64,000 nucleotides of DNA. Source: a virus. The position numbers were made by a program, and so were the translations under genes. The DNA lies in IMG/VR virus record IMGVR_UViG_3300009147_000001, positions 46,164 to 110,163 of that record; one strand, 5' to 3'. Position 1 is the stretch's first letter. The number at the start of each line of letters is the position of its first letter. Below the pieces are notes generated by a model. It was not told the DNA's origin. It saw only the letters and a list, made by a program, of their open reading frames with translations, and made no database searches. This document shows, piece by piece, positions 6,518 through 63,939 of the stretch.

Positions 6518-6571
6518 ATGATATCACCTCCTCGCCACAATAATGAGTATACGAATGCGATCCTACTTATT

Positions 6572-7369
6572 CTACAAAAGATCCAATCCGGTCATTCCAA
6601 CGACCATAGCTCGGGCTGATCCAGCCCCACTTGCACGCCGATGCTGAATGGCTAACCACACGGACTTACCATTTTGTCCATCCCCATCGGTACACAACAT
6701 ACGATCAACAAAAATATCGTTGAATTGCTGGGTATTTGCCGGGGTTGTTATAGGATTGACAATAACATTGTTGTTGTTTAATAAATCTAATACTCGTAAC
6801 TCACCAGTCGTGGTAGCGTCGTTATTGGACAACACGGTAACCCTTAAGGCTGGGTGATACATATACCAGTATGTTTGCGCTAAGTCAGTAAAACTAGAAC
6901 TCGTAGTTGTTATTATTTCTGCAACATTCCACCAGGTGTAAGAGAGTTTGGGGTCACCGAAGCCATGCCGCTGATTAAAACAATCTGAAATGAGCGTATT
7001 TCCCGCTTTGTCATAGATGGCAAATGATGGGAAGGTACCAGTTTGCAATCCACCTACCCCATCGTCAATACCTCGAACAGTAATGGTATATGGATTGAAT
7101 GACCCAACACCAACCGTTGGATCCTTCTTTATATATAGTCCAACTCCTTGACCAAATACCGTATTAACGTTACCATCTAGGAGTATCTCACCACCATCGA
7201 CGGTGGCATCTGGACCATTACGAATAACAATACTACCGCCTTCCACGACAAATCCATCGCTGTCAATCGAGGTCGACGGTAACTGCGGAGTACGCTCTAA
7301 TCGAGATAATCTATTTTCCAAATCCCTAATTACAGTTAATAAATCATCGTCTTGTCTATACTTAGACAT
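6572..7369 (-). CDS. Minor tail protein
   Basis: N-terminal coiled coil (LENRLSRLER), follows hub-like gene. Confidence 0.6.
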   Translation of the reverse strand: MSKYRQDDDLLTVIRDLENRLSRLERTPQLPSTSIDSDGFVVEGGSIVIRNGPDATVDGGEILLDGNVNTVFGQGVGLYIKKDPTVGVGSFNPYTITVRGIDDGVGGLQTGTFPSFAIYDKAGNTLISDCFNQRHGFGDPKLSYTWWNVAEIITTTSSSFTDLAQTYWYMYHPALRVTVLSNNDATTTGELRVLDLLNNNNVIVNPITTPANTQQFNDIFVDRMLCTDGDGQNGKSVWLAIQHRRASGAGSARAMVVGMTGLDLL

Positions 7370-8450: not shown

Positions 8451-9289
8451 TAATCTGCTATCTGATCAAGTTCTGCGTCCACTGCATCTTTTACTTGCTG
8501 AACACCTTCATCAGAAAGCTTCACTTCAGTAGCCACACTAACACCACTAGTAAGCACATCTCGTAGTTCAGCTATCGACTTTTGCATATCTTTGACTGCT
8601 TGAGCTAGTAGGTTTGGCTCTTTACGATCAACTGATTCACCAGGAACCCGAAAGACAATTGGGTCTTCCATGTTCTCTAGTCCTTGCACCCGCTCAATGA
8701 GTGCTTTGCCATCTGGATCGTCCTTTAACGCCACGTCGTCCTCCTGAAATAGTTTAAGAACGTAATCGAAGGGGAAATTCGGACCAGGATCGGTATGAGT
8801 AGTCCCACCAAAACAGATCCGCAATTGATTGTGAGTAGTCATACCTGGAGTAAAAGACTTAACTTGAGCATCAGTCAACCAGCGAAGCGGAATATTGTAA
8901 GATTTCATATCTCGTAAACAAATTCGCTTCATCTGATTGAACATATTGATGCCAAAGGTATCTAACCACTGGCTGCGAACTTGACCAGCAAATCCCGACA
9001 GTTCCCAGTTTATTCCACGATAGTTTCCTGGCCGGTTACCCACTGTCCATGCTGAATCTTTAAGTCGAACGCATTGTACCACACTATTATCGTCCACACA
9101 ATAGTGACTACTCACCCGCCGACCGTCCCCCGGATTAGCAAAGTAGGCAGCAGTTGCCTCCGCTCGACTGGAAGTCTCAGACGCTTCCATGTCGTGAAAC
9201 ACAATCCAAATAGGTGGACCGTCTGGTCGACCAGACGTATAGCCGGCGGCTTGAATAAACTGTACGTCAGGATGATCACCCATAGCCAT
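8450..9289 (-). CDS. Endolysin, N-acetylmuramoyl-L-alanine amidase (Amidase_2)
   Basis: IVFHDME, SSHYCVD, AWTVGN, HTDPGPNFP zinc-amidase motifs. Confidence 0.9.
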   Translation of the reverse strand: MAMGDHPDVQFIQAAGYTSGRPDGPPIWIVFHDMEASETSSRAEATAAYFANPGDGRRVSSHYCVDDNSVVQCVRLKDSAWTVGNRPGNYRGINWELSGFAGQVRSQWLDTFGINMFNQMKRICLRDMKSYNIPLRWLTDAQVKSFTPGMTTHNQLRICFGGTTHTDPGPNFPFDYVLKLFQEDDVALKDDPDGKALIERVQGLENMEDPIVFRVPGESVDRKEPNLLAQAVKDMQKSIAELRDVLTSGVSVATEVKLSDEGVQQVKDAVDAELDQIAD

Positions 9290-11256: not shown

Positions 11257-14200
11257 TATGGCCTCGCTCCTAACAAGAAGCCAAGCTCAGCTGCATGACG
11301 CCGTGGATTTATTTCTTGAGTATAAATAGTAAAATTCTGGTTAGTCCCACCAGCTTGGCTTCCACCCATGAGCCCAGGCAGGGCAGTAGCCGGACCGGTC
11401 CCCATCATCGAAGCCACTCGACTGGAAGCCTTAATCAAAGTACCTAATTGACTCGTCATACCTTGCGCAATCAACTTAACAATTGACTGACCTGAGTAGT
11501 ACGGATTGCCTCGACCAGACAACGGTCCAGTTTTAGCTGGTGAGAACGGCAAGTGGTCGCGAATCTTTTTTGTGATACTATCAATTTTGTTAGTAACTTT
11601 ATCCACCATCGATGTCATACCGTCAATAAGTCCCCTAATGATCCGTGCACCGGCATCAAAGAGCCACGTACCTGCATTAGCAAAGAAACCGACAATTTTT
11701 TCAAAGATTCCAGCGATTTTATCATAAATTCGTTGTATCCAAGTGCTAATAGTGGTATAGACGGTACTCCACACTGAACTGACTGCCGAACTCACAGATC
11801 TCCAGATACCAGCAAGAAAGTCTCGAATACCTGAGCTAGTCCCCTTAACCCGTCCACCAATTTTGCCCCAAATGAAGTCCATAAAGGCCGAGATGCCGGT
11901 CCAGATGGCTTTGAATGATCCCGAGATAGCCGACCAGATAGTCTTAAAGAAGCTAGCAATGGCAGTCCATACCGCAACAGCGACTAGCTTTACCGCTTGC
12001 CACGTTGCACTCCAGGCATCATAGAGAATCTTCAAGCTAACGAGGACGAGTGCCAAAATGATAGTAAAGGCAAGCCGAATGATGGCTACAATGAGACCCC
12101 AAACAGACTTAATCAAACCACCAAAGACACTCCAGAACGTCTCCCATATGCCCCGGAGGAAACCTAAAGCACCTAAAATGATACCAGTTATAATAGCCCA
12201 AGCCTGACTGAGAAAGTCAATAATATTCTGCCATACCCCAATAAAGAATTCGGCAACAGAGTTCCAGATACTAACGAAGAAATCAGCCACTGCGTGCAAT
12301 GCTTTTGGTATTTCCGTCTTAAACCAATTTATTAGCTTTCGAATCCACCCAATAACGGTATTAATAACTATTATCATTGCGGTAAAGGCTGCACCAACAG
12401 CAAGAATGGCTAATACTAGTGGTCCAACCATGACCACCACGAGGACACCAGTAATAACCGCCGCAATAATAGCAAACCACTTAGCTAACTGGATAATAAT
12501 TGGCATAAACGCCCTAATGTTATCCTGATTACTTTTTATCCAATTATTGAATAGTCGCCAGGCAGGAATAATAACATTATTCAACACACTACCAATAAGA
12601 GCGAATCCCTTGCCGATCAAATCAGCAATAATTCGCGCAGTTTCCTTTACTTTAGGCAAAACCTGGGTGAACATAAATTTCACCCAATCAGCAAAGGCTG
12701 GAATCACTTCATCCTTAATAAGCTTCCATAGCTTACTGAGGGATGGAACTAAATTCTTCTCAAACTCACTGACTATATCCTGAACGAATGGGACAATAAC
12801 ATCTTTCCATAGCGTAACTATCGCGTCTTTAACTGAAATGAGCATGTCACGGAATTTGGCACTGCGTTGCCACGCGATGATTATGCCCGCACCCAGCCCA
12901 GCAAAGGCAGCAATAACCCCAGCGAGCACGCCACCAACAATGAGTAACGACGTTCCAGCCGTCGCCACCACTGCAATAAATGCCGCTAGTCCACCCACCA
13001 GCAGTAGCACCACTCCGAGCAATGCGGTAAAACCGGCCGCGATCGCTGCCCCCACAGCCAAGAGCTTTTGCTGCTGTGGTGATAGTTTATTGAACCACTC
13101 TAGAACCTGGCCGACGGCGTTTACTACCTTTATGAAGGTTGGAATGAGTGCCTCACCGGCCATTTCCTTAACTGCTTTCCACCGATTGGACAGCAGTTGA
13201 CTGGAAGATGCAGCGGTATTGGCCATCTTTTTATAAGCTGCTTCGAACTGACCACTAGCCCCGGCCATGTCGGTAAGGAATCCCTTGAACTCCTCCAACT
13301 CACCTGGTTTCAGCAGAACCTGTTCAATGAACCGTCTAGCTTGAATAGTTCCACCGGCACCCTTTAGTATTTCTACTAATGTCTTAACCCGATCGGCTGG
13401 TGGCATCTGGTTGAGCTTAACACGCAACTCACTTAAAACATCAACAAGCGGTCGGAAGTTTCCCTTGATATCTCTAACCTGAACACCAAGCTCCCCCAAC
13501 CGTTCTACAGTCTTGGGATTGGACATCGCATCCAAGGCCCGCGCCCCTGATGCTGCCGCCATCGCCGCAGTCAAACCATTACGGGTAAGGAAAGCCAACA
13601 TGCCCGCAACAGTTTCAAAGCTTTGGCCGGCTCGGTTGGCCGATGGAGTAATTCGACCAAAGACTCGGGCGAACTCCTCATAGGTACCGACACCCTTACG
13701 AACCAACTGGAATTGTATATCTAATACTTTATTAACATCCTTTAATGGTATATTAAGCGCGTTCATAATGGCAATGGTGCCGCGCCCAGCCGCTTCAATA
13801 GTAGTTTGGCCAGCTACCGCAGCCTTGGCAAATCCAATAAGAAGTAACTCAGATTCCGCAAGGTTCGCCTTAGTGGACGAAAAAATATCAAATAGCGCTG
13901 GTTGAATTTGCTCGAATGGCACGGCGATGTTACGTGCCACTTTTAGTCCAATTTGACTCAGCTCCTCCAGAGTTGCCTTAAAACCATCCACCTGGGTACT
14001 CGTGAGGGCAACTTGACGTTGATATTCTACTGCTGTCTTCACCATATTATTCATGGCAGCGACAGTAATAACACCAACGCCCGTGAAGACAAAGCCCATA
14101 GATGTGGCAACTTGGCTGACCGTAGTCATCGAGTGGGATAAATATTGTAATCGTCGAGCGTGCAGATCGGCCGCATTGGCATTGAGTTGCAACTGCTGAG

Positions 14201-14522
14201 CCGCACGTTCCAGCGCTACCTGTTGACCTCGTAGACTATTAATATGGTCTCGGTTAGCCAGCATTTCTAGCCGCATGGCGCGAATGGAATCTTCCGAGGC
14301 GCCGAGCAGTCGGGCGCGCTGAATAGAAGTACCCATCATGGACTGATTGAGTCGTGCCTCAGCCAATGCCGAAGCAACGCTTGCCCGCGCCGCCTGATTA
14401 TGCGCCATCGCCACTGCGTCACCTGCACCCCGAACATTGCGTGTGAATGATCGAAGCGCGCGATTAGCTTCATCACGCGCTTTTAAGACCAGCCACATGT
14501 CTCGGGTGGCACTGAATGGCAC
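11256..14522 (-). CDS. Tape measure protein
   Basis: 1088 aa, Ala-rich helical core, TM-like segments, periodic Trp repeats. Confidence 0.93.
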   Translation of the reverse strand: MPFSATRDMWLVLKARDEANRALRSFTRNVRGAGDAVAMAHNQAARASVASALAEARLNQSMMGTSIQRARLLGASEDSIRAMRLEMLANRDHINSLRGQQVALERAAQQLQLNANAADLHARRLQYLSHSMTTVSQVATSMGFVFTGVGVITVAAMNNMVKTAVEYQRQVALTSTQVDGFKATLEELSQIGLKVARNIAVPFEQIQPALFDIFSSTKANLAESELLLIGFAKAAVAGQTTIEAAGRGTIAIMNALNIPLKDVNKVLDIQFQLVRKGVGTYEEFARVFGRITPSANRAGQSFETVAGMLAFLTRNGLTAAMAAASGARALDAMSNPKTVERLGELGVQVRDIKGNFRPLVDVLSELRVKLNQMPPADRVKTLVEILKGAGGTIQARRFIEQVLLKPGELEEFKGFLTDMAGASGQFEAAYKKMANTAASSSQLLSNRWKAVKEMAGEALIPTFIKVVNAVGQVLEWFNKLSPQQQKLLAVGAAIAAGFTALLGVVLLLVGGLAAFIAVVATAGTSLLIVGGVLAGVIAAFAGLGAGIIIAWQRSAKFRDMLISVKDAIVTLWKDVIVPFVQDIVSEFEKNLVPSLSKLWKLIKDEVIPAFADWVKFMFTQVLPKVKETARIIADLIGKGFALIGSVLNNVIIPAWRLFNNWIKSNQDNIRAFMPIIIQLAKWFAIIAAVITGVLVVVMVGPLVLAILAVGAAFTAMIIVINTVIGWIRKLINWFKTEIPKALHAVADFFVSIWNSVAEFFIGVWQNIIDFLSQAWAIITGIILGALGFLRGIWETFWSVFGGLIKSVWGLIVAIIRLAFTIILALVLVSLKILYDAWSATWQAVKLVAVAVWTAIASFFKTIWSAISGSFKAIWTGISAFMDFIWGKIGGRVKGTSSGIRDFLAGIWRSVSSAVSSVWSTVYTTISTWIQRIYDKIAGIFEKIVGFFANAGTWLFDAGARIIRGLIDGMTSMVDKVTNKIDSITKKIRDHLPFSPAKTGPLSGRGNPYYSGQSIVKLIAQGMTSQLGTLIKASSRVASMMGTGPATALPGLMGGSQAGGTNQNFTIYTQEINPRRHAAELGFLLGARP

Positions 14523-15240: not shown

Positions 15241-16506
15241 CTATAGTATGTCTTCCTGTGTCTTCAATGTAATTTGCCATGACTTACCAGTGCTGTCAAT
15301 AACGTTCTGATAGGCAATACTAGCCCGAACAATATCGCCCTGACCAGACAAACCAACCTCAAAGGTATCTTTGATCGCCACTGGAGCAAGAATAACAATA
15401 TTATTGTTTACACCCTTAGTAGCCGTCAAAGTAACACTCTGCGAGGTAACCGACTTAAACAAATCATAATCAGTCCGAGCCTCGAAATCACGTTCCATAT
15501 TCATTGTCGAATTACGCTCACCAAACTTCATAAACTGCGCGCCACGACCAGTATCCTTGAGGCGGAACTGTGCCTCTGCGTTGTCTTCTACGGCAAACTC
15601 GAAGGTATCAGTATCAAAAACCTGTGTGCCGGTGGGGATTTCAATTTTGAACATGCCAGCGCCGAATGGAGTAGTGGTTGGCCACGTTGGCGTGGGTAGC
15701 GACTGCACTGCCTCGTCTCGGCCCATCATACTGGTGTTAAATGTTAAAATTCCATCCGCGATACCAAAAGTGAAGCTTGACGTCACACAGCCAGTATAGC
15801 CAAATACCAAACCGTTACGCACAAAAGTCAACGACAGGGTTCGTACTGGCACGGCTGCCGAGGTAGGAGTAAACGTGTAGGTAAAGTTTGGTGATGTACC
15901 GGTTTTAGCAATAGATGTGCGGGAGGCGTAGAGGAAGTAGGCAATAACGTCTTCCAGTGACTCCATATCTAAGTCGCCTTCGACATGGTAGTTGCCCGCT
16001 ACTGCCCCGATAACATCGGCATTCTGTCGAATTGGTCGACGCCAAATGGTGTCTTGCTGAACCACCAATGACTCAGAGTTAAAGGGAAAGAATTTGGTTG
16101 GTGCATAATAGGTACCTGAGTTAGCAGCGGTGTTCTGCGCAGGAAAAGCGCCTGCCGGTGAGCCAGGTGAGGTATCAATATCAGACGTGACTGCACCCAC
16201 TGTCTTATACAGTAGTTCGGTGCCAGTTGCGCCACCTGCGGCAGTCTTATACAGTTTATATCCAGTTGCACCAACAACGGCAGCCCAGGTAACAGTCACC
16301 GTAGACGTGGAACCGGTAGTAACAATCGTCTGTTCGTTGCTCGCGGTGGTTTCACCATTAGTATTAATTGCTGTCACCACATACTTGTAAGTGCCTGCGG
16401 TAATGGTGCCACCAGTGGCTGCGGTGGCTAATGCTGATTGTACTGGCGGAGATAACTGCTCAAAGGCAAGACCACCTATACCACCCGCGCCAATTCCAAT
16501 AGCCAT
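15241..16506 (-). CDS. Major tail tube protein with N-proximal FN3/Ig-like insertion
   Basis: Size, synteny, YTFTP and GYTGCVTSSFTF motifs. Confidence 0.85.
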   Translation of the reverse strand: MAIGIGAGGIGGLAFEQLSPPVQSALATAATGGTITAGTYKYVVTAINTNGETTASNEQTIVTTGSTSTVTVTWAAVVGATGYKLYKTAAGGATGTELLYKTVGAVTSDIDTSPGSPAGAFPAQNTAANSGTYYAPTKFFPFNSESLVVQQDTIWRRPIRQNADVIGAVAGNYHVEGDLDMESLEDVIAYFLYASRTSIAKTGTSPNFTYTFTPTSAAVPVRTLSLTFVRNGLVFGYTGCVTSSFTFGIADGILTFNTSMMGRDEAVQSLPTPTWPTTTPFGAGMFKIEIPTGTQVFDTDTFEFAVEDNAEAQFRLKDTGRGAQFMKFGERNSTMNMERDFEARTDYDLFKSVTSQSVTLTATKGVNNNIVILAPVAIKDTFEVGLSGQGDIVRASIAYQNVIDSTGKSWQITLKTQEDIL

Positions 16507-54861: not shown

Positions 54862-54933
54862 TCTCGCATAGTTTAATAGGCAGAACGCTGCGCTCTGGAC
54901 GCAGAGGTTATAGTTCGAATCTATGTGCGAGAG
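54862..54933 (+). tRNA. tRNA-Gln(CTG)
   Basis: Full cloverleaf, AC arm CTGCG-CTCTGGA-CGCAG. Confidence 0.9.
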
Positions 54934-54935
54934 CT

Positions 54936-55006
54936 GATGTGGGTCGATAGTAATTGGTTATCTTCTTATAACAGGTTAGGCCGATTGCTGATAACATATC
55001 CACATC
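54936..55006 (+). ncRNA. Y RNA-like scaffold E1 (short cargo, CTTATAA loop)
   Basis: GATGTGG/CCACATC stem, GGGTCGA, GGTTAT, CATATCC. Confidence 0.75.
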
Positions 55007-55016
55007 GTGAGAGTTG

Positions 55017-55085
55017 GTTCGGGTCGAAGATAATCGGTTATCTCACTGCAAATGACACGCCGATCATCAATCATTATATCCGAAC
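55017..55085 (+). ncRNA. Y RNA-like scaffold E2 (Cys-GCA anticodon-like hairpin cargo)
   Basis: GTTCGG/CCGAAC stem, GGGTCGAAG, cargo TCA-CTGCAAA-TGA. Confidence 0.78.
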
Positions 55086-55424
55086 GACCACGTCTACATC
55101 CAGTTGAGAAGCTAAGCACACACGTACTCCGGTGTAGACATATATGTTCCCATCCATACGGCCGAGAATACAACATGTCCCTCCCGATGGGAACTAAAGC
55201 TTTCTCCATCCTACACGAGCGCGATCACCAAGAAGGGACCGATGGAGAAGGAAATTCAGCACGGTCATGGCAGAGATTCATCGAACTACTATCGTCCCAT
55301 CGCATGACCGTGATGGTGGCCTTATCAAATAGGGTGTTTATTATCCAAGCCACGCCCATATGGTCACTGTAGTATGTGGTTGTGTCATACTTGACGCAAT
55401 AATCATAGTTCAACCACACAACCA

Positions 55425-55630
55425 CATACTTTATCATGATCCTGTCACCAACCGAACGTGGCCCAACCCACCCATACACGATCATGATAAAGTATGATAA
55501 TAATTACGCCAAAGACCAATCAGTAAACTATGTCATGCACGTGTAATTATTATCATACTTTATCATGATCACATCATCTGCGGAGCGTAAACCAAAACCA
55601 TTCCATGCGATCATGATAAAGTATGATAAT
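55425..55630. repeat. Four 17-bp cores (CATACTTTATCATGATC) in alternating orientation
   Basis: 55425-55441 fwd, 55480-55496 rev, 55554-55570 fwd, 55609-55625 rev. Confidence 0.92.
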
Positions 55631-55702
55631 GATTTCACCAAGTCTTGTGCATACACCAAACGCAGCCGGTGACACTGTTATTCGTAAGGGAGAACGTGGA
55701 AC

Positions 55703-55846
55703 ATGAGCAACGACGAGGAACGTCTCAAGAAGGTTATTGCGGATAAGGTGGCAGAGGATAAACGTCGAGCCGCAGAAAAACTAGCTGCGGATCAGGCTGA
55801 GCAACGGCTGCATGAGGAAGAACGTCGTCAGCGCAACAAAGAGTAG
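55703..55846 (+). CDS. 47-aa charged helical protein
   Basis: Own translation MSNDEERLKKVIADKVAEDKRRAAEK...; GGGAG RBS. Confidence 0.6.
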   Translation: MSNDEERLKKVIADKVAEDKRRAAEKLAADQAEQRLHEEERRQRNKE

Positions 55847-55855
55847 TTCGCGGTT

Positions 55856-55929
55856 AGCGGGATGGCGCAGGTCGGTAGCGCGCGGGGCTCATAACCCCGA
55901 GGTCATGGGTTCGAATCCCATTCCCGCAA
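55856..55929 (+). tRNA. tRNA-fMet(CAT)
   Basis: 1:72 mismatch, GGG/CCC anticodon stem, CTCATAA loop. Confidence 0.9.
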
Positions 55930-56095
55930 CGTGACGCATAGCTTGGGTTTCGGTTTTTGGTGACGATATCCGAGGCAATCAGCGCATTTATATTGCGGTA
56001 AACCTAGATTGTTGAAATTATGAGGAACCATGTTTAATATCAGCGTGGTATCGTGGACGCTGGTGTGTGGCGCAAACTACGTAAGAAGGTGAGGT

Positions 56096-56416
56096 ATTAA
56101 ACCTGATAGACGTAGACGTCGAGAACAATTAGAAGGTGGCGCTAGCGTCACCAGGGCACAGCTTGATCGTATATATGTCAGAGACAACGGAATCTGTCAG
56201 ATATGCCACGAGCCGTGCGCACGTGAGGATGCCTCGCGTGATCACATCAAGGAAGTGAGATACTGTTCTCGTCAAGAAGCACGAAGTGACAAAAATGTCC
56301 AACTCGCACACAAAGAATGTAATGGACGTCGAGAACGACAATACTTTGATGAATTAGCAACAAAAGGTATGGACCAACTCTTACGGGAGTTGGGCGATCG
56401 GTATCGTAAATACTAG
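56096..56416 (+). CDS. HNH endonuclease, apparent ATT start
   Basis: Own translation ...RDNGICQICHEP...SRDHIKE...NVQLAHKECN...; in-frame TGA directly upstream. Confidence 0.75.
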   Translation: MKPDRRRRREQLEGGASVTRAQLDRIYVRDNGICQICHEPCAREDASRDHIKEVRYCSRQEARSDKNVQLAHKECNGRRERQYFDELATKGMDQLLRELGDRYRKY

Positions 56417-56503
56417 ATGTGGAGGATCGCATGACGGAGCCAACCACACCGGTGGAGCCAACACCAGACGAGCCGGAAAGTGGTCCGGACGAGTAAGACA
56501 CGA

Positions 56504-56637
56504 GTTGTTTTGGGTCGAATGGTATCGGTTATCATATTATCAGTTCGATTCTGAATACTCGCTCCTCACGGATGGCGAGTACTTACACCTAGTGTAAGGG
56601 AATTGTTACCGATAGCAGCTCACATATCCAAAACAAC
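56504..56637 (+). ncRNA. Y RNA-like scaffold E3 (YrlA-type T arm + closed acceptor cargo)
   Basis: 10-bp outer stem; TCAG-TTCGATT-CTGA then TACTCGCT/GGCGAGTA hairpin. Confidence 0.8.
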
Positions 56638-56707
56638 CACAGTATGTTATAGGATCAACTCCGAGACGTGTCAACTACACAAGACATGGGCCATCCTATA
56701 ACATAAC

Positions 56708-56782
56708 GTCTTCGTAGCCCAATATGGTAGAGGCACAGCCTTGAGGTGGCTGACAGTGCAGGTTCGAACCCTGTCGAAGGCA
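56708..56782 (+). tRNA. tRNA-Leu(GAG), short variable loop
   Basis: CAGCC-TTGAGGT-GGCTG. Confidence 0.85.
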
Positions 56783-56876
56783 CGCGGACATAAAAAAGGT
56801 TGGCAGTGACACAAAAGTCCGACACGTGGATCGTATGCCACCGCTGTTGACAAAAAATAACGTGGAACTGCCACTA

Positions 56877-56924
56877 TGGTTTCCTCATTCCTTGGTTTCC
56901 TCATTCCTTGGTTTCCTCATTCCT
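56877..56924. repeat. 16-bp tandem repeat x3 (TGGTTTCCTCATTCCT)
   Basis: Seen directly. Confidence 0.9.
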
Positions 56925-56950
56925 GAAAAATGAGGTGGTGGACTGGGTTG

Positions 56951-57023
56951 GATTCGGGTCGGAAGATATTGGTTATCCTACCACTTTGGAATCAATCCGA
57001 TATCATTATTACACATCCGAATC
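56951..57023 (+). ncRNA. Y RNA-like scaffold E4 (short cargo containing CTTTGGA)
   Basis: GATTCGG/CCGAATC and GATATTGG/CCGATATC stems. Confidence 0.75.
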
Positions 57024-57069
57024 TATCATATGTTTCCTCGTTTTCTTAAAACGAGGTGGTGGAGGCGGC

Positions 57070-57145
57070 AGGTTCGGGTCGAACGTAGATCGGTTATCTT
57101 TGAAAGAAGAGTAAATGCCCGATCTACATCAATATATCCGAACCT
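57070..57145 (+). ncRNA. Y RNA-like scaffold E5 (short cargo)
   Basis: AGGTTCGG/CCGAACCT and GTAGATCGG/CCGATCTAC stems. Confidence 0.78.
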
Positions 57146-57177
57146 TAACAATAAGTGAATGCACGATATCCGAGTAA

Positions 57178-57252
57178 TTGGGTCGAAGATAATTGGTTAT
57201 CCACCCGAGCTAGTCTAGCGCATGGACCAATTATCATAGTGTGTTCTTCCGA
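57178..57252 (+). ncRNA. Y RNA-like scaffold E6 (degenerate 3' motif)
   Basis: GGGTCGAAG, GATAATTGG/CCAATTATC stem, GGTTAT. Confidence 0.65.
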
Positions 57253-57329
57253 CGAGAGCTAGACGCGAAAGGAGTGATCATCATGATCTACCGACGTTAG
57301 CCCACGGTGGGCTGACCGGAAAGGTCACG

Positions 57330-57611
57330 ATGTCACGCACCGATGTTCATCGACCATGGCACGTTCAGATTAATGATCCGTACAATCGCCACATTCTGTA
57401 CCGATATCCTGGTCTTTATAGTGAAATGATGGTAACATCATTCAAGAATATCGGTTGTGGCTGTGCCTTATGTACAGGTACGTTCTTCCGTCGACACGCG
57501 CGTAGACAAGAGCGAGTGCAATGGAGGACGGCTAAACGGGACATACTTAAATGCCAGGCCGCTGACCGTGAGCATATAGATGTACCGCTGATCCGCGGTA
57601 ATGCCTGGTAA
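57330..57611 (+). CDS. Basic hypothetical protein with CGCxxC motif
   Basis: MSRTD.HRP...CGCALC; GAAAGG RBS. Confidence 0.65.
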   Translation: MSRTDVHRPWHVQINDPYNRHILYRYPGLYSEMMVTSFKNIGCGCALCTGTFFRRHARRQERVQWRTAKRDILKCQAADREHIDVPLIRGNAW

Positions 57612-57619
57612 CTTATTTG

Positions 57620-57800
57620 ATTCGGGTCGAAGACACGTTGATTATCGGATCCTGGGGAATCATACCCCAACGCTAGGTTTATTGTATAGTGGGAGATTAA
57701 GACATCGTCCTGAAAAACCACGACAATAAACTGCCTTTCTCTCCTTGCGGCATGGAAAAGTGACGCGGGAAATATTCGACTGTCAATCATACATCCGAAT
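57620..57800 (+). ncRNA. Y RNA-like scaffold E7 (~130-nt structured cargo)
   Basis: ATTCGG/CCGAAT stem, GGGTCGAAG, GATTAT variant, TACATCC; internal GTTTATTGT/ACAATAAAC stem. Confidence 0.68.
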
Positions 57801-57817
57801 TTCATAAAAGGAGTACT

Positions 57818-58453
57818 ATGACGACCCATGTCATTATGGTTGTTGACAAGTCTGGTTCAATGTATCATCTTACCAGCGATATTATTGGTGGGTTCAATCA
57901 ATACATAGATGAACTGAAAGCCCAATCGGATATTGAGTTTCGGTTTACCGTAACCTTATTTGATACGACTTACACATCACTGTGTGTCAATACTCCCATT
58001 GCTGAGGTACCAAAACTTACTCGGGAAAACTATAAGGCTTCGGGTAATACCGCTCTTATCGATGCCGTGGGCAAATCTATACGAGATTTTGATGTGGCCA
58101 CGCCAGAACTAGCCGACAACGACAAAGTACTTCTCGTGGTTCAGACGGATGGTTATGAAAATTCATCTACTGAATATAAGAACACTGATATCGAGAAGAT
58201 GATTTCTGAGCGCGAAGCTACTGGCAAATGGGGATTCGTTTTCCTTGGCGCTGGACCAGATGTCTGGGATCACGCGCATAGAATGGGTTTCAATACTGTA
58301 TCCTCGACAACGCAATCTGGTTCGGCTACCCGCACGCGGTATGGTAAGATGTCCGGTGCTACTATAGCTATGGCTAGCAGTGGGGCACCGGTAGCAGAGT
58401 CCTCCATTGATTGGATGGAACAGGTCGTCGAAGACGACCCTGACGGCAAGTGA
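57818..58453 (+). CDS. Stand-alone vWA domain protein
   Basis: MIDAS DKSGS, GNTALIDA, QTDGYEN, FLGA. Confidence 0.9.
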   Translation: MTTHVIMVVDKSGSMYHLTSDIIGGFNQYIDELKAQSDIEFRFTVTLFDTTYTSLCVNTPIAEVPKLTRENYKASGNTALIDAVGKSIRDFDVATPELADNDKVLLVVQTDGYENSSTEYKNTDIEKMISEREATGKWGFVFLGAGPDVWDHAHRMGFNTVSSTTQSGSATRTRYGKMSGATIAMASSGAPVAESSIDWMEQVVEDDPDGK

Positions 58454-58460
58454 GGCATAC

Positions 58461-58736
58461 ATGGACTATATTGCAGCAGGTAGCCCGTCGGACACCCTGC
58501 TGCAATATGGTGCCATCGGTGCCATTGCGTTGTTGGCATTATTAGCAGTATACAAGTTGTTTCAACGACAAATACAGCAACATGAACGTGACATTGCCAG
58601 GGCTGATAAGGCCGAGGAGCAACTAGCTACACTGAATACTCTCATTCGAGATCAGCTAGTCGTTCAATTAACACGTGCCACCGACTCTATCAGTCGAGTC
58701 GCTGAATTACTCAGAGACGAAGCACGAGGTCGGTAA
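58461..58736 (+). CDS. Single-TM coiled-coil membrane protein (holin-like)
   Basis: QYGAIGAIALLALLAVY followed by coiled coil. Confidence 0.5.
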   Translation: MDYIAAGSPSDTLLQYGAIGAIALLALLAVYKLFQRQIQQHERDIARADKAEEQLATLNTLIRDQLVVQLTRATDSISRVAELLRDEARGR

Positions 58737-58887
58737 ATGATCAAGGATCGGGTCAAGACCGAGGATATTATAGAAGAGTCTACCGATGCTATCAATATGC
58801 TCAAACGGTTGGTGAGCCGATTAGAAGTGTATACAGATCAGTTAGAGCGGGAATTGGCTCTCAAGATCGAATCACAGGAGGACTCGA

Positions 58888-59403
58888 ATGGAAAATGACG
58901 GGCTTGCTGAGCAAGCCCGAGAGTTACGGTCGGGGATTAATGAGTTAAATCTAGCGATAATAGCATTAAGTAACAGAATTGCCCTCTCTGAAGAACTAGC
59001 CAACCGATTAAAGCTGATAGTGCGTGGACTAATTGCTAGTTTTATATGTGGCATTATCGTGGTTGGCTATCTTATAGCAGAGAAGGTGGGCGATGACCGA
59101 TATGTTAAATGTCAAGCACACTTCAACGAAATTTCTAGTATTCGCGACAGAATTATCAATGAAGTATCTGACGATGAGCGTAAGGCTGAACGTGCGCGTA
59201 GTAGCGCATTAGACGCCACATTCTTAGATCCATCTTTACTTAAGCCGGTTGATAAAAGGACTCCGGCTGATACGAAGCGCGTAATTGATCTTTTTATCGC
59301 TTATCGTGAAGCAGCAGAGCGACTCAGAATAGAAGAAAAGAAGGCAGACGAGGCGAGGGCGGCAAATCCTATTCCACCATTACCGTCTGATCTCTGTGGG
59401 TAG
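58888..59403 (+). CDS. Membrane-anchored helical protein
   Basis: One TM; GGAGG RBS. Confidence 0.55.
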   Translation: MENDGLAEQARELRSGINELNLAIIALSNRIALSEELANRLKLIVRGLIASFICGIIVVGYLIAEKVGDDRYVKCQAHFNEISSIRDRIINEVSDDERKAERARSSALDATFLDPSLLKPVDKRTPADTKRVIDLFIAYREAAERLRIEEKKADEARAANPIPPLPSDLCG

Positions 59404-59407
59404 ACAG

Positions 59408-59545
59408 TCCTTCGGGTCGAACGTGATTTGGTTATCTCCTTTTAAGAGAGTGGTTGCAGGTTCGAGTCCTGTCAGGCCCACAATGGGTCTGTAGCTCAAT
59501 GGGCAGAGCACTAAAAACCCGAATTACATCAATATATCTGAAGGA
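59408..59545 (+). ncRNA. Scaffold E8 carrying circularly permuted tRNA-Lys(TTT)
   Basis: 3' half 59436-59480 precedes 5' half 59485-59512. Confidence 0.85.
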
Positions 59546-59935
59546 ACTATATCATGAAACATGATCTTATCATGGAAGAATATCCGTACTTCTCCACTCC
59601 CATGGTGTACGTTGCTATCTGCTCCTGCGGGAGATATGAATCTGGTAATCGGACTAGTCGAATAGACGCAGAGAAATCGTGGCTTGAACACAAGCGAGCA
59701 AAAGAGTCTCCTCATGATTCATGAACAATACTGCTACGGTGCACATACCGATGATCTCACGTGTGAAGAAGTACGAGAACTACGGCAGAGTGCTACCAAT
59801 GACATACGATACTGCCATTACAATCCACGTTCGGCCTATCATAGGTTTGCCGGGGAGAATCCATCTCCGACCGATAGTTGTACGTATAATGGATGTTCAG
59901 TAACGTGGGCAGAGTTTGCTGAATTATAGATGTCT

Positions 59936-60004
59936 GGTACGGGTCGGATTGTTTCGGTTATCTAATGGGTAGAGTTAAACCGATACCTTTTTCATATCCG
60001 TACC
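59936..60004 (+). ncRNA. Y RNA-like scaffold E9 (D-loop-like cargo CTAATGGGTAGAG)
   Basis: GGTACGG/CCGTACC stem, GGTTAT, CATATCC. Confidence 0.72.
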
Positions 60005-60066
60005 GCTTAACCTCCCCGGGAGCGGAGGGAACAGGATGGAATAGTCTAGAAAGCTATTCCATTCTT

Positions 60067-60139
60067 GCCGACGTGCGCTAACGGCAAAGCGATGCGATTT
60101 AGGATTGCATGAATGGGGGTTCGACTCCCTCCGTCGGTA
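60067..60139 (+). tRNA. tRNA-Leu(TAG), short variable loop
   Basis: TGCGA-TTTAGGA-TTGCA. Confidence 0.85.
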
Positions 60140-60193
60140 CGCTAGCCTGGTCATTGCCTTACCAGCAACCAGGTCCACCCCACCAGGCAGCAT

Positions 60194-60266
60194 GCCCTTG
60201 TAGCTCAACGGATAGAGCGCTAGATTACGGATCTAGGTGTTGCAGGTTCGAATCCTGTCAAGGGTA
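60194..60266 (+). tRNA. tRNA-Arg(ACG)
   Basis: CTAGA-TTACGGA-TCTAG. Confidence 0.92.
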
Positions 60267-60267
60267 C

Positions 60268-60405
60268 GTGGGTAAAACAACAGGTGCATGTCCAACATGC
60301 GGCAAGAACCATTCACCATTTTGTGGTAGTAAACCAGATAGCCAAAAACCACAACCAGGACCATGCGCCAAATGTGGACGACTGCATTATCCACCATGTG
60401 ATTAG
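60268..60405 (+). CDS. 45-aa protein with two CxxCxxxHxxxC zinc-knuckle-like motifs
   Basis: CPTCGKNHSPFC and CAKCGRLHYPPC; GTG start right after tRNA-Arg. Confidence 0.55.
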   Translation: MGKTTGACPTCGKNHSPFCGSKPDSQKPQPGPCAKCGRLHYPPCD

Positions 60406-60412
60406 TTTATAT

Positions 60413-60553
60413 GTGAACGGGTCGACAGTGATTGGTTATCATCAAGCTCATAACTTGAAGGTGCAGGTTCGACTCCTGCCTCCGCTACCATGGCGGAGTG
60501 GTGTAATGGCAGCATAATAAAAGTATCCGATTGCGACCAATACATCCGTTCAT
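60413..60553 (+). ncRNA. Scaffold E10 carrying circularly permuted tRNA(CAT)
   Basis: 3' half 60440-60490 (with CCA) precedes 5' half 60492-60514. Confidence 0.85.
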
Positions 60554-60557
60554 CAAT

Positions 60558-60631
60558 GCGGGGACCGAAAATCAGCCTAGCGATGATGATTAGGTAGGTA
60601 TGCTTGAGAGGTTCAATTCCTCTCCCCCGCT
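60558..60631 (+). ncRNA. Degenerate tRNA-like element (acceptor + T arm, no D stem)
   Basis: GCGGGG/CCCCGC and GAGAGG-TTCAATT-CCTCTC. Confidence 0.5.
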
Positions 60632-60972
60632 CAATGGTGTCGAGTACGCATCTGTATGGCAACGTCGCTGCACACGTTAGTTCATATCGAACGAGCCTTG
60701 CCGCGTGCAGCCGAGGTCTCGTTTAGTACTCACCATACGTGGGATATAGGCGTTAACGAATCTAAAAGGTACGTTACAGCCATCGAGCAGGTTCGAAGGT
60801 GTGGCCATGATCCGGGACCTCCTTTCACCCATATGGGGAGCCACGCCTGCGCCTATATCCTATGAATAGGTCAGTGCTACGACTGTTAATCGTCAACACT
60901 GTCAATCGGATGCCAGTCCGAGTGCCCCAATAGTACAATAACTACTGGCATAGTTATTGGTGCGGGGTATCT

Positions 60973-61047
60973 AGGAGTGTAGCTCAGAGGTCAGAGCGCG
61001 AGGTCCGCATAACTTCGAGGTCATAGGTTCGAATCCTATCATTCCTA
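60973..61047 (+). tRNA. tRNA-like gene with 9-nt anticodon loop (TCCGCATAA)
   Basis: Canonical acceptor, D and T arms; AC stem CGAGG/CTTCG. Confidence 0.75.
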
Positions 61048-61075
61048 CGCTAATGTAGTTTCTTACCAAGGAGAT

Positions 61076-61306
61076 GTGTTGAATATCGAGCCCAATGGCC
61101 TTAGAGTAGATCTGTCTCAGGCTGCGTGGCAGAAGTCTTCAAAGTCAGGTCCGTATTCAGATAATTGCGTGGAAGTGGCTTTTGTCGACGGTGCCATTGC
61201 CATGCGGCACTCGAAGAATCCGACGGGTCCAACACTCATTTTCACACAGGGTGAATGGGACGCCTTCATAGCAGGAGCCCGTGATGGAGAGTTCGACCTG
61301 GCATAA
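61076..61306 (+). CDS. DUF397 protein
   Basis: WQKSSKS..NCVEVA..MRHSKNP..L.F..EWDAF. Confidence 0.92.
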   Translation: MLNIEPNGLRVDLSQAAWQKSSKSGPYSDNCVEVAFVDGAIAMRHSKNPTGPTLIFTQGEWDAFIAGARDGEFDLA

Positions 61307-61577
61307 GAGTAGTCATAGTGCCGTCACTGATCAATGCCTCGAAGTACAGTGGCATAAAAGCAGTCATAGCCAACAAGGTAGTGGTAACTGTTTAGAGACA
61401 ACTTTTAAAAAGAGCAGCTACAGTTCTATCCACAATTGTCTTGAAGCAGCTCTGCCAGATGGTACTATCCTCGTACGAGATTCCAAGAATCCTAATGGTG
61501 GAATATTGGAGTTTTCTCCGCAATCATGGGTGAACTTCTTGGGAGGTGTGAGGAATGATGAGTTCAATCTGGCGTAA
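61281..61577 (+). CDS. DUF397 protein with triplicated N-terminal motif
   Basis: Three (W/F)xKSSxS..CLE units then VRDSKNP. Confidence 0.9.
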   Translation: MMESSTWHKSSHSAVTDQCLEVQWHKSSHSQQGSGNCLETTFKKSSYSSIHNCLEAALPDGTILVRDSKNPNGGILEFSPQSWVNFLGGVRNDEFNLA

Positions 61578-61791
61578 AAGTACCTACTGTTCTACTAGCT
61601 GCGGTGAGTGTCTGGAAGCAAGCTTTCAGAAAAGTAGTTACAGTCAAGGTAACGGCAATTGCTTAGAAGCTGCTCTACCTGATGGGACAGTGCTCGTCAG
61701 AGACTCCAAGAATGTCGACGGTGGCGTTCTGGAATTTTCTCCACGTTCCTGGAATGACTTTCTTTATGCAATAAAGAACAACGAGTTCTGA
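61555..61791 (+). CDS. DUF397 protein with duplicated N-terminal motif
   Basis: Two (W/F)xKS(S/T)Y..CLE units then VRDSKN. Confidence 0.9.
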   Translation: MMSSIWRKSTYCSTSCGECLEASFQKSSYSQGNGNCLEAALPDGTVLVRDSKNVDGGVLEFSPRSWNDFLYAIKNNEF

Positions 61792-61796
61792 GTAAT

Positions 61797-61932
61797 TCAT
61801 GACGGGTCGATCGGATGACGGTTATTAGTGGGGTAGTGTAAGAATAACACACCAGATTCCAACTCTGGAAATGAACAGTGAGATGCTGTTCCCCTACTGC
61901 CATCCGTTATTCACCGAATATATCCGTCATGA
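61797..61932 (+). ncRNA. Scaffold E11 enclosing an unpermuted tRNA-Trp
   Basis: TCATGACGG/CCGTCATGA and GGATGACGG/CCGTTATTC stems. Confidence 0.8.
61827..61902 (+). tRNA. tRNA-Trp(CCA), non-canonical D and T loops, encoded CCA
   Basis: AGTGGGG/CCCTACT, CCAGA-TTCCAAC-TCTGG, G73 + CCA. Confidence 0.75.
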
Positions 61933-61935
61933 CCT

Positions 61936-62006
61936 GCCGTTGTAGCTTAGTGGTAAAGCCTCTGTTTTCCAAACAGATGACGAGGGTTCGATTCCCTTCA
62001 ACGGTT
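61936..62006 (+). tRNA. tRNA-Gly(TCC)
   Basis: TCTGT-TTTCCAA-ACAGA, U73. Confidence 0.9.
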
Positions 62007-62130
62007 CGGGGAGTCCAATATAGAAGTGCGCAGATTACCCCCGTTATCAGTGCCACTGTATTGGACTCTCTGATGAGAACCTAAATGAAACGTTAGGAAG
62101 AGGCGTTGACAGGGCATTTAGGTTCTCTTC

Positions 62131-62202
62131 GTCGATGTGGTGTAAGGGTTGCACGACACCACGCCAAGGTGTAGGCTGTGGGTTCGAATCCCATCATCGG
62201 CT
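62131..62202 (+). tRNA. tRNA-Gly(GCC), unusual C33
   Basis: ACACC-ACGCCAA-GGTGT, U73. Confidence 0.85.
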
Positions 62203-62446
62203 CGGCGCTAGGGTGGTGTGCACACCACAGACCAGATATGGGAGCACCTGACCTAGCCAGTGTGCTTCGTTGATCCTTAGTGTGTTGAATCGAATGTGAG
62301 TTCCACATTCTGTGACACTACTAAGGTTCCGTCCACCTCCGATTCGGCTCACGGTCGGAATAAAGGTAATGATGTGGTGGTATTAGCGCAAATACCACTA
62401 TACGGACACTCCTGGTGTACACTGGAGTCAAAGAAGTGAGCCACCG

Positions 62447-62519
62447 GGAGCCATAGACTAAAAGGAAGGTCTCCGCTCTTTCAAAGCGGAAGGTACGGGT
62501 TCAAGCCCCGTTGGCTCTA
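62447..62519 (+). tRNA. tRNA-Glu(TTC)
   Basis: CCGCT-CTTTCAA-AGCGG. Confidence 0.88.
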
Positions 62520-62730
62520 CTGTCGAGTGGTGATTAGCTTAGTGTCAGCCGTCGTCATTGTTGGCCTCAAACGAGGCGCGTTAATTACCACTCGACCAAA
62601 ACGTCAGATAGCAACACGATGACTTCTCTCGGCCGAGTAAGTGGTGGGCGACTCCTATCCATGATCACGGGTTCATCCACTTCGGAGTGTTGCTATCTGA
62701 CCCATAGATACTCACAGACAGGACAAAGCC

Positions 62731-63096
62731 ATGACCAATACACTGTCAATGTATGACCGTCTAGGTGGACATGCCACCATGGTAGCTGTTGTCGACAAGC
62801 TCTACACTGCCATCCTGGCTGATACCAATCTGGACCACTACTTTACTCATGTGGACATGGCTAAGCTGAAGCGGCATCAGGCATTGATGATTGGTCAAGT
62901 GCTTGGTGGTCCTGTCTCGTTCGAACTCGATGCACTCAATCGCGCGCATAAAGATCTTAATATTAGCAATTCGGATTACTGGTTGGTCAGTGGTCACCTG
63001 TTTAGTGTACTAACCGAATTTAAAGTTGATCAAGATATACTTGATCACGTATTTAGCACTCTATGTGCGATAAGAGGTAGAGTAATAAATGGCTAA
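62731..63096 (+). CDS. Group I truncated haemoglobin (trHbN/GlbN-like)
   Basis: YDRLGG, B10 Tyr (KLY), CD1 Phe (HYF), LGGP, proximal His (RAH). Confidence 0.88.
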   Translation: MTNTLSMYDRLGGHATMVAVVDKLYTAILADTNLDHYFTHVDMAKLKRHQALMIGQVLGGPVSFELDALNRAHKDLNISNSDYWLVSGHLFSVLTEFKVDQDILDHVFSTLCAIRGRVING

Positions 63097-63298
63097 AAAC
63101 GAAGATAAGCTACCTCCGAAGGATTCCGGCGCTGCCGCCCAACGTGCGGAGCGCAAACGTGCAGCCGCTGAAAGAGCAGAAAAGATAGCTAAGGAAGAAA
63201 AGGATGCAGCCGCCGAGAAAAGCAGAAGAGATATGCGTTCCGATGAAGTAGCTAGACAGGCGGCCATTGACCGAGCACGACGTCAGGGAAAATATTAG
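63089..63298 (+). CDS. Charged helical small protein (paralogue of 63316)
   Basis: PKDS..AA...RARRQGK shared. Confidence 0.65.
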   Translation: MAKNEDKLPPKDSGAAAQRAERKRAAAERAEKIAKEEKDAAAEKSRRDMRSDEVARQAAIDRARRQGKY

Positions 63299-63315
63299 TA
63301 AGGGAATGAAACAGC

Positions 63316-63516
63316 ATGGGTAATGATCCGAAAGACTCACGGGTAGCGGCTGAACGGGAACGACTGCGCCGGGAAGCAGCAGAAAGACAACGAAAAATTG
63401 CTGAACAAGAACAGCAAGAAAAAGCAAGGAAGTTACGAGAGGACCAGCGCAGGGTCGATGAGGAAAATAGACGGGCAGCCGTTGAACGGGCTCGCCGACA
63501 AGGCAAGAATAAATAG
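63316..63516 (+). CDS. Charged helical small protein
   Basis: E/R/K/Q-rich, ends RARRQGKNK. Confidence 0.65.
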   Translation: MGNDPKDSRVAAERERLRREAAERQRKIAEQEQQEKARKLREDQRRVDEENRRAAVERARRQGKNK

Positions 63517-63828
63517 AGTCAGCCGGAGTGCACGCACGATAGAATCGTGAGAACATGGCTACAGCCGAGAGGGTTTCTTAATGTGCATGGGACCTCGGCG
63601 CGAGTAAGAAGAGATCGCGGGACGGGCTGGGATCTCCACGGGACGGTAAGGGATGAGGCGTTCCACCATGGTAATAAGAAAATTACAAAGAGTCATCGCC
63701 AAGATCGACGACCACTGCCCTAAGTGTGGTGAAAAAGTAAATCCACTCTTACATGCAGCTTATCCTATGTTGTGTGCAGCAACTCCACTACTCGGTGGAA
63801 TGCGTGAACCACATAAGGATGAATTATA

Positions 63829-63939
63829 GTACGGGTCGACAATGTATCGGTTATTTGATGGTTCAACTCCTTCCACCCCGACCATCGGGGTGTAGCCTAA
63901 TTGGCAAAGGCTAACCGATCATTATTTCCATATCCGTAC
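63829..63939 (+). ncRNA. Scaffold E12, classical YrlA architecture (T arm, closed acceptor, D arm)
   Basis: GATGG-TTCAACT-CCTTC, CACCCCG-ACCAT-CGGGGTG, GCCT-AATTGGCAA-AGGC. Confidence 0.82.

Follow-up and report, generated by a model that had tools for sequence, protein, structure and literature searches.

A probable Y RNA array in a soil phage genome: one conserved handle, many different cargos

What does a phage do with a dozen structured RNAs that share one scaffold and differ in what that scaffold carries? The question arises from a 64,000-nt stretch (the window; bases 46,164–110,163) of the 110,163-bp genome of an uncultured soil phage, IMG/VR record IMGVR_UViG_3300009147_000001. A first-pass annotation, made from the letters alone, had marked 12 dispersed copies of a two-stem handle there and likened them to YrlA, a bacterial Y RNA. 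Wang et al. (bioRxiv 10.1101/312249) divide Y RNAs into a Ro60-binding module and an effector module with an unknown partner. The role of this second module has been a standing question since Y RNAs were discovered, and the phage offers a natural series for it: 14 RNAs with one handle and different modules. Judging from sequence comparison, we put the probability that the array is a family of Ro60-bound Y RNAs at roughly 85%; this identity is well supported, as all tests that we ran favor it.

The handle motif is present at all 12 positions first listed (Table 1). The window holds 11 complete copies and one rearranged copy, c6; two further copies, c13 and c14, lie outside it. Because the record ends share a 123-bp overlap—consistent with a circular assembly—and these two copies lie just past the window end, the array continues over the record junction, with c12 spanning the overlap region. 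The genome total is 14 copies, all on the + strand, over ~11.6 kb. The pattern GGTCG[AG]-N4-14-G[GA]TTAT matches the 110,163-bp genome 14 times, on the + strand each time; 200 Markov-1 simulated genomes averaged 0.66 matches and never exceeded 4.

The two-stem handle has the consensus GGGUCGR...GGUUAUC / ...AYAUCC. The full layout, [outer stem]-GGGUCGR-[inner stem]-UUAU-cargo-[inner stem']-J3-AYAUCC-[outer stem'], is found in 13 of the 14 copies, so that the arrangement first proposed stands for 11 of the window copies and fails for the one annotated at 57178 (c6). An outer stem of 7–11 bp, whose 5' strand ends in GGG, is followed by UCGA plus 1–3 nt, an inner stem of ~9 bp whose 5' strand ends in GG, UUAU(C), and a cargo of 18–130 nt, the size range originally given. 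The 3' side consists of an inner-stem strand starting CCGA, an 8–14-nt joining strand (typically A-YCAAU-AYA), and UCC with the outer-stem strand. Spacing is constant (14–15 nt from GGG to UUAU; 17–19 nt from the inner 3' strand to UCC), and unconstrained folding recovers both stems in 13/13 full copies. GUCG(A/G) and UUAU occur in 14/14 copies, the latter corresponding to the YUAY of YrlA, and UUAUC in 11/13 copies of the alignment. The strict YrlA 5' motif GNCGAAN0-1G, which the annotation had matched to the array, is found in half of the copies (c2, c3, c5, c6, c7, c8, and c14, as GUCGAAG, GUCGAAUG, or GUCGAACG); the others have only GUCG(A/G). RNA lengths are bimodal, at ~70 and ~135 nt (84 copies across phages).

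Copy c6 lacks the downstream AYAUCC; GAUAUCC sits just upstream instead. Its order is a closing stem GAAUGCAC/GUGUGUUC on the outside, then GAUAUCC-GAGUAAUU-GGGUCGAAG as a loop-capped outer stem, then the inner stem GAUAAUUGG/CCAAUUAUC with its cargo. The outer stem is capped as a hairpin (GUAA loop, with an 8-nt link between GAUAUCC and GGGUCGAAG), and the extra 8-bp closing stem encloses both hairpins. Copy c6 is thus a circular permutation of the handle that keeps all parts, the chain entering and exiting via the 3' joining strand.

Covariation identifies the handle as a conserved RNA structure. MAFFT put the 3' strand of the short copies in the wrong place, and the covariance model was therefore seeded from a single copy (c5) with a typed structure and rebuilt from the eight best matches, an antisense match of the single-copy model being left out. 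On the whole genome, it returned 13 full copies at 30.9–77.7 bits, c6 at 16.4 bits, and no further match in 110 kb; five copies outside the 8-copy training set were recovered at 30.9–49.7 bits. Among the 13 copies, 95.2% of pair cells are paired, compared with 70.4% after shuffling; both partners vary in 13 of 18 pairs, and 0/500 shuffles reach the observed score; sliding the partner strand by 1–3 columns lowers pairing to 29–45%. This alignment was fitted to the covariance model, and a model-free table anchored on GGG, UUAU, CCGA, and AUCC shows the same compensated pairs. The signal extends to 71 copies from 25 other phage loci with GC contents of 33% to 67%, found by an IMG/VR pattern scan followed by the model: 91.9% of cells are paired vs. 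64.0% shuffled, with 17/18 pairs changed on both sides. Stems that vary while staying paired, around fixed loop letters, had been reported by the first-pass annotation, and the covariation bears this out within the genome and across phages.

No Ro60 gene lies in the window, as had been noted, and the gene was missed at first because it lies outside it. The genome encodes one, at + strand positions 6437–8071, 3.9 kb downstream of c14, the last copy. Its product has TROVE (118.9 bits) and vWA_Ro60 (204.2 bits) domains, and the alignments to Rsr of Deinococcus (2NVO, 5e-111), RO60 of human (9NEN), and Ro60 of Xenopus (1YVP) cover its full length. All copies lie on the Ro60 strand, from 15.5 kb (c1) to 3.9 kb (end of c14) upstream of its start. 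The co-occurrence check suggested at the outset gave a clear answer: TROVE is present in 19/20 records with model matches vs. 3/14 pattern-only controls (Fisher p = 1.3e-5), and the single TROVE-less record among the 20 is a 62%-complete fragment. The 15 other records with both TROVE and model matches have their copies on the TROVE strand, mostly 0.1–3 kb from the gene.

The array is present beyond this phage, in relatives with 2–7 copies that include cultured Streptomyces phages. In three uncultured relatives (Ro60 43–58% identical), the region upstream of Ro60 holds same-strand model matches numbering 7, 5, and 2; in the last two of these phages, several matches are weak. In the Streptomyces phages Karp (5–6 copies, and one further copy farther away) and StarPlatinum (4), with Ro60 ~55% identical, the copies lie between tRNA genes just upstream of a gene labeled "Ro-like RNA binding protein." Mycobacteriophage Rizal has two model matches (33.9 and 30.0 bits), one YrlA-type and one short-cargo, directly upstream of Ro gp223. 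At its threshold, the genome search counts 12 copies here, compared with 1–7 in each of 15 further Ro60-positive records and 0 in another two; this is the highest copy number against 22 other records counted, the next being 7 (in an uncultured phage, and in Karp if one weak match is included). The GenBank records leave the handle RNAs unannotated (Karp 12777–14336; StarPlatinum 6833–6923, 8632–8786, and 15412–15604).

How closely does the array resemble described Y RNAs? According to Chen et al. (PMC4201824), YrlA RNAs have a 5' GNCGAAN0-1G motif, YUAY, and a tRNA-like T/acceptor/D module, lie ≤4 kb from Ro60 on the same strand, and occur in 22 phages, including Rizal's mycobacteriophage group; Mycobacterium smegmatis YrlA is cleaved by RNase P and acquires CCA. 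The array shares with YrlA/YrlB the GNCGAA-type 5' motif, a stem followed by YUAY, the T/closed-acceptor/D module (about five copies here), and the same-strand Ro60 neighbor. It differs in having 14 copies, where published accounts describe one or two Y RNAs per phage, and in conserving both strands of the Ro-binding helix, of which the 5' strand alone can be recognized in Salmonella and M. smegmatis (PMC4201824). Its cargos also extend past the YrlA module to complete permuted tRNAs that bear anticodon arms, a tRNA-like RNA in unpermuted order, a tRNA that is opened at its T arm, short hairpins, and a fold of 130 nt unlike tRNA. Thermus phage phiLo offers the likeness of a phage Ro60 with two Y-like RNAs upstream (Yrl1 and Yrl2), which bind in vitro and have a CGAA motif in a stem-bulge-stem; the accessible part of that report (PMC12135203) describes two RNAs and mentions no tRNA-like cargo, array, or mRNA operator.

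Metazoan Y RNAs and nematode stem-bulge RNAs share the ends paired as a lower stem, the internal loop, whose 5' strand is of the (G)GUC-CGA type, and the upper stem with UUAUC after it. In conserving both helix strands, the array is closer to these RNAs. The Rfam nematode model ceN72-3 aligns full-length but weakly, on both handle strands, to c10 (20.4 bits) and c2 (15.7 bits; gathering score 38), and the handle presumably resembles human Y1. Metazoan Y RNAs differ in carrying a pyrimidine-rich loop rather than tRNA parts, in numbering about four per genome, and in being products of RNA polymerase III. In the permuted tRNA genes of Cyanidioschyzon merolae, the 3' half precedes the 5' half, with the acceptor strands joined by a short linker, and a bulge-helix-bulge at the termini is cut and then closed by ligation to a circle, from which a working tRNA results. 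The phage RNAs have a Ro60-type handle at their termini instead, and neither a ligase nor a splicing endonuclease was found in the genome. A self-cleaving ribozyme or an archaeal-type bulge-helix-bulge site was considered for the handle and rejected, with no Rfam match and unsuitable loop sequences. Rfam at gathering thresholds returned only tRNAs in the region, whose megablast comparison with 50,697 phage records gave a single tRNA match. A non-exhaustive literature search found no description of arrays of this size or of permuted tRNAs in phages. The Ro60/Y-RNA pair is known; the array differs from the described bacterial and phage cases in copy number, two-strand helix conservation, cargo range, and the putative operator described below.

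Several points weigh against the Y RNA identity or its elaboration. The Rfam YrlA model (RF02553) gives partial or full-length matches that all fall below the gathering score of 69 bits: 39.4 for c8 (partial), 29.1 for c12 (full length), 19.6 for c13, and 18.5 for c10. The locus of Rizal, a YrlA phage, also scores only 36.1 bits, so the shortfall reflects the model more than it bears on membership. At its far end, the array lies 15.5 kb upstream of Ro60, compared with the 4 kb typical of YrlA. Letter conservation across phages is partly built in because those loci were retrieved by the pattern GGGTCGA..GGTTATC, although the stems were not so selected; copy numbers in the other phages are minimum counts because the handle model is tuned to this phage. 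The overlap between cargo loops and toxin targets considered below rests on 7-nt loops, on the toxins of another genus, and on two shaky assignments (c1 and c4).

The start of the Ro60 gene provides the best indirect evidence for what Ro60 recognizes. Directly on its ribosome-binding site lies a permuted mimic of the handle internal loop (Table 1), and the leader reads ACCAAAUAUAUCC-GAUCAAUAAUGGUC-GGGUCGAC-CAAGGAG-N6-AUG: the 3' joining strand, a hairpin-closed outer stem, the 5' strand, and the ribosome-binding site where the inner stem would begin. Within this genome, the permuted form is confined to this site and c6. In five phages (this one, phages L020 and L022, Karp, and StarPlatinum), the Ro60 ribosome-binding site or start codon is overlapped or directly adjoined by the mimic. 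In L022, whose handles have AGACUGAA and AUGUUU in place of GGGUCGAA and AUAUCC, the leader reads ACCAUGUUUCC-UAC-GGAGACUAAAGGAG; the variant handle motif is matched in the leader, and the mimic therefore follows the local handle. This pattern suggests that the internal loop is the part recognized by Ro60 and that free Ro60 may repress its own translation through the mimic, which is likely an autoregulatory operator.

Ribosomal-protein operators and the Escherichia coli ThrRS leader likewise place a copy of a protein's RNA-binding site over the ribosome-binding site of its own mRNA. The mimic differs from these in being a circular permutation of the handle, and the regulation here is putative, known from sequence. 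No description of an mRNA operator for Ro60 was found in a non-exhaustive literature search. The mimic points to feedback control of Ro60 and offers a simple reporter assay for Ro60–handle recognition.

The reading frame upstream of Ro60 has a feature of its own: 113 codons before the start (genome 6099–6436) are open in the Ro60 frame, without a stop, and protein-like. Ro60 homologs start at ATG 6437, and the extension is either part of a longer second Ro60 isoform or an upstream gene without its own stop.

The cargos comprise several classes, in keeping with the plug-in picture of a constant handle that accepts different modules. Two are whole permuted tRNAs, as annotated: after rotation, ARAGORN calls c8 as tRNA-Lys(ttt) and c10 as tRNA-Met(cat), each a complete cloverleaf with anticodon. 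Copy c8 runs from the anticodon arm (loop CUUUUAA) through a 5-nt variable region, the T arm, and an acceptor stem closed by ACAAU to the D arm; in c10, the acceptor loop reads ACCAU, so CCA is encoded. The presumed whole unpermuted tRNA, c11, has the tRNA-model score and anticodon of one (Table 1) and a 3' end G-CCA-U, but it is without the elbow nucleotides of the D and T loops. Four copies (c8, c10, c12, and c13) have the T arm/closed acceptor stem/D arm module, and c3 has it loosely; c1, c2, c4, c5, c6, c7, and c9 lack it, and of these c1, c2, c4, c5, and c9 carry single short hairpins. Copy c14 has a tRNA-like fold attached to the handle at its T arm, and both c11 and c14 are joined at points other than that used by the YrlA module.

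Some cargos are kept across phages. The UUAUC-N-CACUGCAAA cargo, with the anticodon loop of tRNA-Cys, occurs once each in six sources (this phage and five other loci), and the UUGGA(A/G) class once per phage in five (this phage and four other loci). A handle RNA lies directly 5' of tRNA-Gly(UCC) in four phages, each time with a different cargo (Table 1). Cargo may be exchanged on a fixed handle position, which would fit the tRNA-Gly(UCC) sites if these copies are orthologous. The anticodon-type loops among the cargos correspond to Lys-UUU, Met-CAU, Trp-CCA, and Cys-GCA, and less surely to Gln and Ile. Toxins of Mycobacterium tuberculosis that cleave single tRNAs act on Cys, Gln, Ser, fMet, Trp, and Lys-UUU (PMC13657306); the overlap of the cargo loops with these targets is suggestive only.

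Genes, tRNAs, and handle RNAs of the region all lie on one strand. Across five phages, 11 handle ends fall within −1 to +3 nt of tRNA genes, and several handle RNAs are spaced 1–9 nt apart; here, c1 begins immediately 3' of tRNA-Gln (54862–54934), and c11 is followed after a 3-nt gap by tRNA-Gly(UCC). A single long precursor whose products end at the outer-stem base, as set by tRNA 5' and 3' processing, fits this arrangement. A consensus scan, uninformative on transcription units, gave promoter-like sites at the shuffled expectation (16 vs. 15.4) and 14 terminator-like sites vs. 7.3 expected, with 12/14 on the non-coding strand and none bracketing a copy; it picked out no plus-strand signals flanking single copies. 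RtcB and nucleotidyltransferase genes had been suggested as something to look for in the rest of the genome. Searches of the phage genome for RtcB, an Rnl2-type RNA ligase, an AAA_33 kinase, and a CCA-adding/poly(A) polymerase domain found none, and a repair or ligation pathway run by the phage is thus unsupported here; an Rnl1 search also gave no match, but its controls gave none either. Karp does carry an RNA ligase and a kinase.

The explanation that we favor, likely as a whole and with most of its weight on the Y RNA identity, would run as follows. The 14 phage Y RNAs, homologs of YrlA/YrlB, would be released from a long transcript of tRNAs and small genes, with ends set by RNase P at the following tRNA and by 3' trimming at the preceding one. 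The handle would be the docking site for a ring of phage Ro60, through a GGG/UCC outer stem with a fixed G-U pair, the internal loop UCGAA / A-YCAAU-AYA, the 9-bp inner stem, and UUAUC; binding would stabilize the RNAs. Facing away from the ring, the variable module would present permuted tRNAs, elbows, anticodon-type loops, or other folds to host tRNA-binding proteins, and each RNA would tether Ro60 to one host factor or decoy that factor, with tRNA-cleaving toxins and defense nucleases the most attractive targets. Free Ro60 would bind the permuted internal loop over its own ribosome-binding site, matching Ro60 synthesis to the Y RNA pool. The specific decoy or tether role is a tentative component, less probable than not on the comparisons available.

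Two accounts accept the Y RNA identity and divide over the cargo. The more specific one, which we consider somewhat unlikely, takes the array as a panel of tRNA decoys mounted on Ro60, one host tRNA-cleaving toxin or nuclease per cargo (Lys-UUU, Cys-GCA, Met-CAU, Trp-CCA, and Gln-like). Ro60 would shield the decoys or pass a captured nuclease or RNA to a degrading enzyme, and cargo swaps would track host defenses; in a sub-case, RNase P would open the ACCAU acceptor loops to leave chargeable two-piece tRNAs still tethered to Ro60. If true, this would be a new kind of phage counterdefense against tRNA-cleaving systems and would explain the place of the RNAs in phage tRNA clusters. The plainer account, which we rate as unlikely, makes all copies ordinary Ro60 gates or PNPase tethers of the Deinococcus, Salmonella, or phiLo type—redundant paralogs whose cargo is neutral drift or stabilizing. 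It has precedent: Y RNAs tether Ro60 to PNPase in three systems, one of them a phage (PMC12135203; PMC4201824), and Chen et al. note that the tRNA fold may merely shield the RNA from nucleases (PMC4201824). Yet the CUGCAA and UUGGA(A/G) cargos are kept at one per phage although the Ro60s are only ~55% identical, and intact anticodon arms and encoded CCA ends would be superfluous for stability.

Could the handle instead be a leader–trailer helix for processing or quality control, from which the cargo tRNAs (Lys-UUU, Met-CAU, and Trp-like) are released, or opened by RNase P, for translation, with Ro60 as a chaperone? The completeness of c8 and c10 after rotation speaks for this, as do the ACCAU loops of c10 and c12 and the GCCAU end of c11, given that only 1–2 of the 29 canonical phage tRNAs encode CCA. 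That canonical set also lacks tRNA-Trp, and its sole CAU tRNA is initiator-like (three G-C pairs in the anticodon stem); M. smegmatis YrlA is itself cut by RNase P and given CCA (PMC4201824). The same set already includes Lys-UUU as a normal gene, however, at least 7 of the 14 cargos have no acceptor stem, and RNase P opening would give a two-piece tRNA still on the handle. The genome searches also found none of RtcB, RNA ligase, kinase, or CCA-adding enzyme (with the Rnl1 controls blank as well), and c11 is weakened as a supplier of the missing tRNA-Trp by its degenerate D and T loops. We regard this account as improbable. Were the copies a dispersed repeat with no relation to Ro60, for instance a miniature mobile element, an insulator of transcripts, or a site of RNase attack in the tRNA operon, their scatter between genes and tRNAs would fit. 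This reading is very hard to reconcile with the 19/20 TROVE co-occurrence, a shared single strand mostly near the gene, stems that covary around fixed loop letters, and a covarying mimic at the Ro60 start, and we give it almost no weight.

Between these accounts and the Ro60-docked Y RNA reading, experiments are practical because cultured phages carry the handle: Karp and StarPlatinum (4 to 7 unannotated copies) and Rizal (two).

Table 1. Handle copies and associated features. Positions are window coordinates unless a genome or locus is named; scores are from the handle covariance model unless another model is named.
Feature	Position	Strand	Description	Score and remarks
c1	54935..55007	+	19-nt hairpin cargo, loop CUUAUAA, anticodon-loop-like	61.7 bits
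c2	55017..55085	+	18-nt cargo, loop CUGCAAA = anticodon loop of phage tRNA-Cys	63.2 bits
c3	56504..56637	+	76-nt cargo: T arm (UUCGAUU loop), 7-bp closed acceptor-like hairpin, another hairpin	49.7 bits; outside training set
c4	56949..57025	+	20-nt cargo CACUUUGGAA, UUGGA(A/G) class	60.7 bits
c5	57070..57145	+	21-nt cargo: 5-bp hairpin, GAAA loop; covariance-model seed	77.7 bits
c6	57157..57246	+	circularly permuted handle, 26-nt cargo starting CCACCC	16.4 bits only; fold z = -2.98
c7	57619..57801	+	130-nt cargo without recognizable tRNA features; short inner stem GUUGA/UCGAC	30.9 bits; outside training set
c8	59408..59545	+	complete circularly permuted tRNA-Lys(UUU)	66.3 bits; YrlA model 39.4 bits
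c9	59935..60005	+	18-nt cargo: 4-bp hairpin with D-loop-like AAUGGGUAGAG	57.0 bits
c10	60413..60553	+	complete circularly permuted tRNA-Met(CAU)	44.7 bits; outside training set; tRNA model 31.8 bits
c11	61797..61932	+	unpermuted tRNA-like RNA, CCA anticodon	57.5 bits; tRNA model 39.2 bits
c12	63829..63939	+	minimal module of YrlA type: T arm, ACCAU-closed acceptor stem, D arm	37.0 bits; outside training set; YrlA model 29.1 bits, full length
c13	genome 638..772	+	past record junction	
c14	genome 2394..2522	+	past record junction	
Handle mimic	genome 6389..6445		on Ro60 ribosome-binding site	
Handle–tRNA-Gly(UCC) pair	61797..62007			
Handle–tRNA-Gly(UCC) pair	L020:6398..6583			
Handle–tRNA-Gly(UCC) pair	L022:7421..7587			
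Handle–tRNA-Gly(UCC) pair	L023 (StarPlatinum):6833..6996			

Some further elements lie among or beside the copies. Upstream of c4 and c5 (window 56877–56948 and 57028–57069) stands a common hairpin (CCUCAUU..AAUGAGG / CCUCGUU..AACGAGG) followed by UGGUGGA and, at c4, preceded by three tandem copies of GGTTTCCTCATTCCTT; these hairpins give weak, sub-threshold matches to the Rfam wcaG RNA motif (25.4 and 20.4 bits; gathering score 42). Directly 3' of c10 and c14 (window 60556–60636 and genome 2523–2618) are tRNA-like folds not called by ARAGORN or Rfam, with an acceptor stem and a good T arm, odd or over-long D and anticodon regions, and z of about -2.5. In window 55330–55645, long repeats based on ATCATGATAAAGTATGATAAT, both inverted and direct, are clustered and give palindromic sub-threshold Rfam matches on both strands; the cluster is a possible operator or promoter region.

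Among the array RNAs are also three DUF397 genes in tandem, a globin gene of bacterial type, and a weak vWA-domain gene (window 61076–61791, 62731–63096, and 57818–58453). The DUF397 family is characteristic of actinomycetes resembling Streptomyces. These three genes, together with the relatives among Streptomyces phages, point to an actinomycete host.

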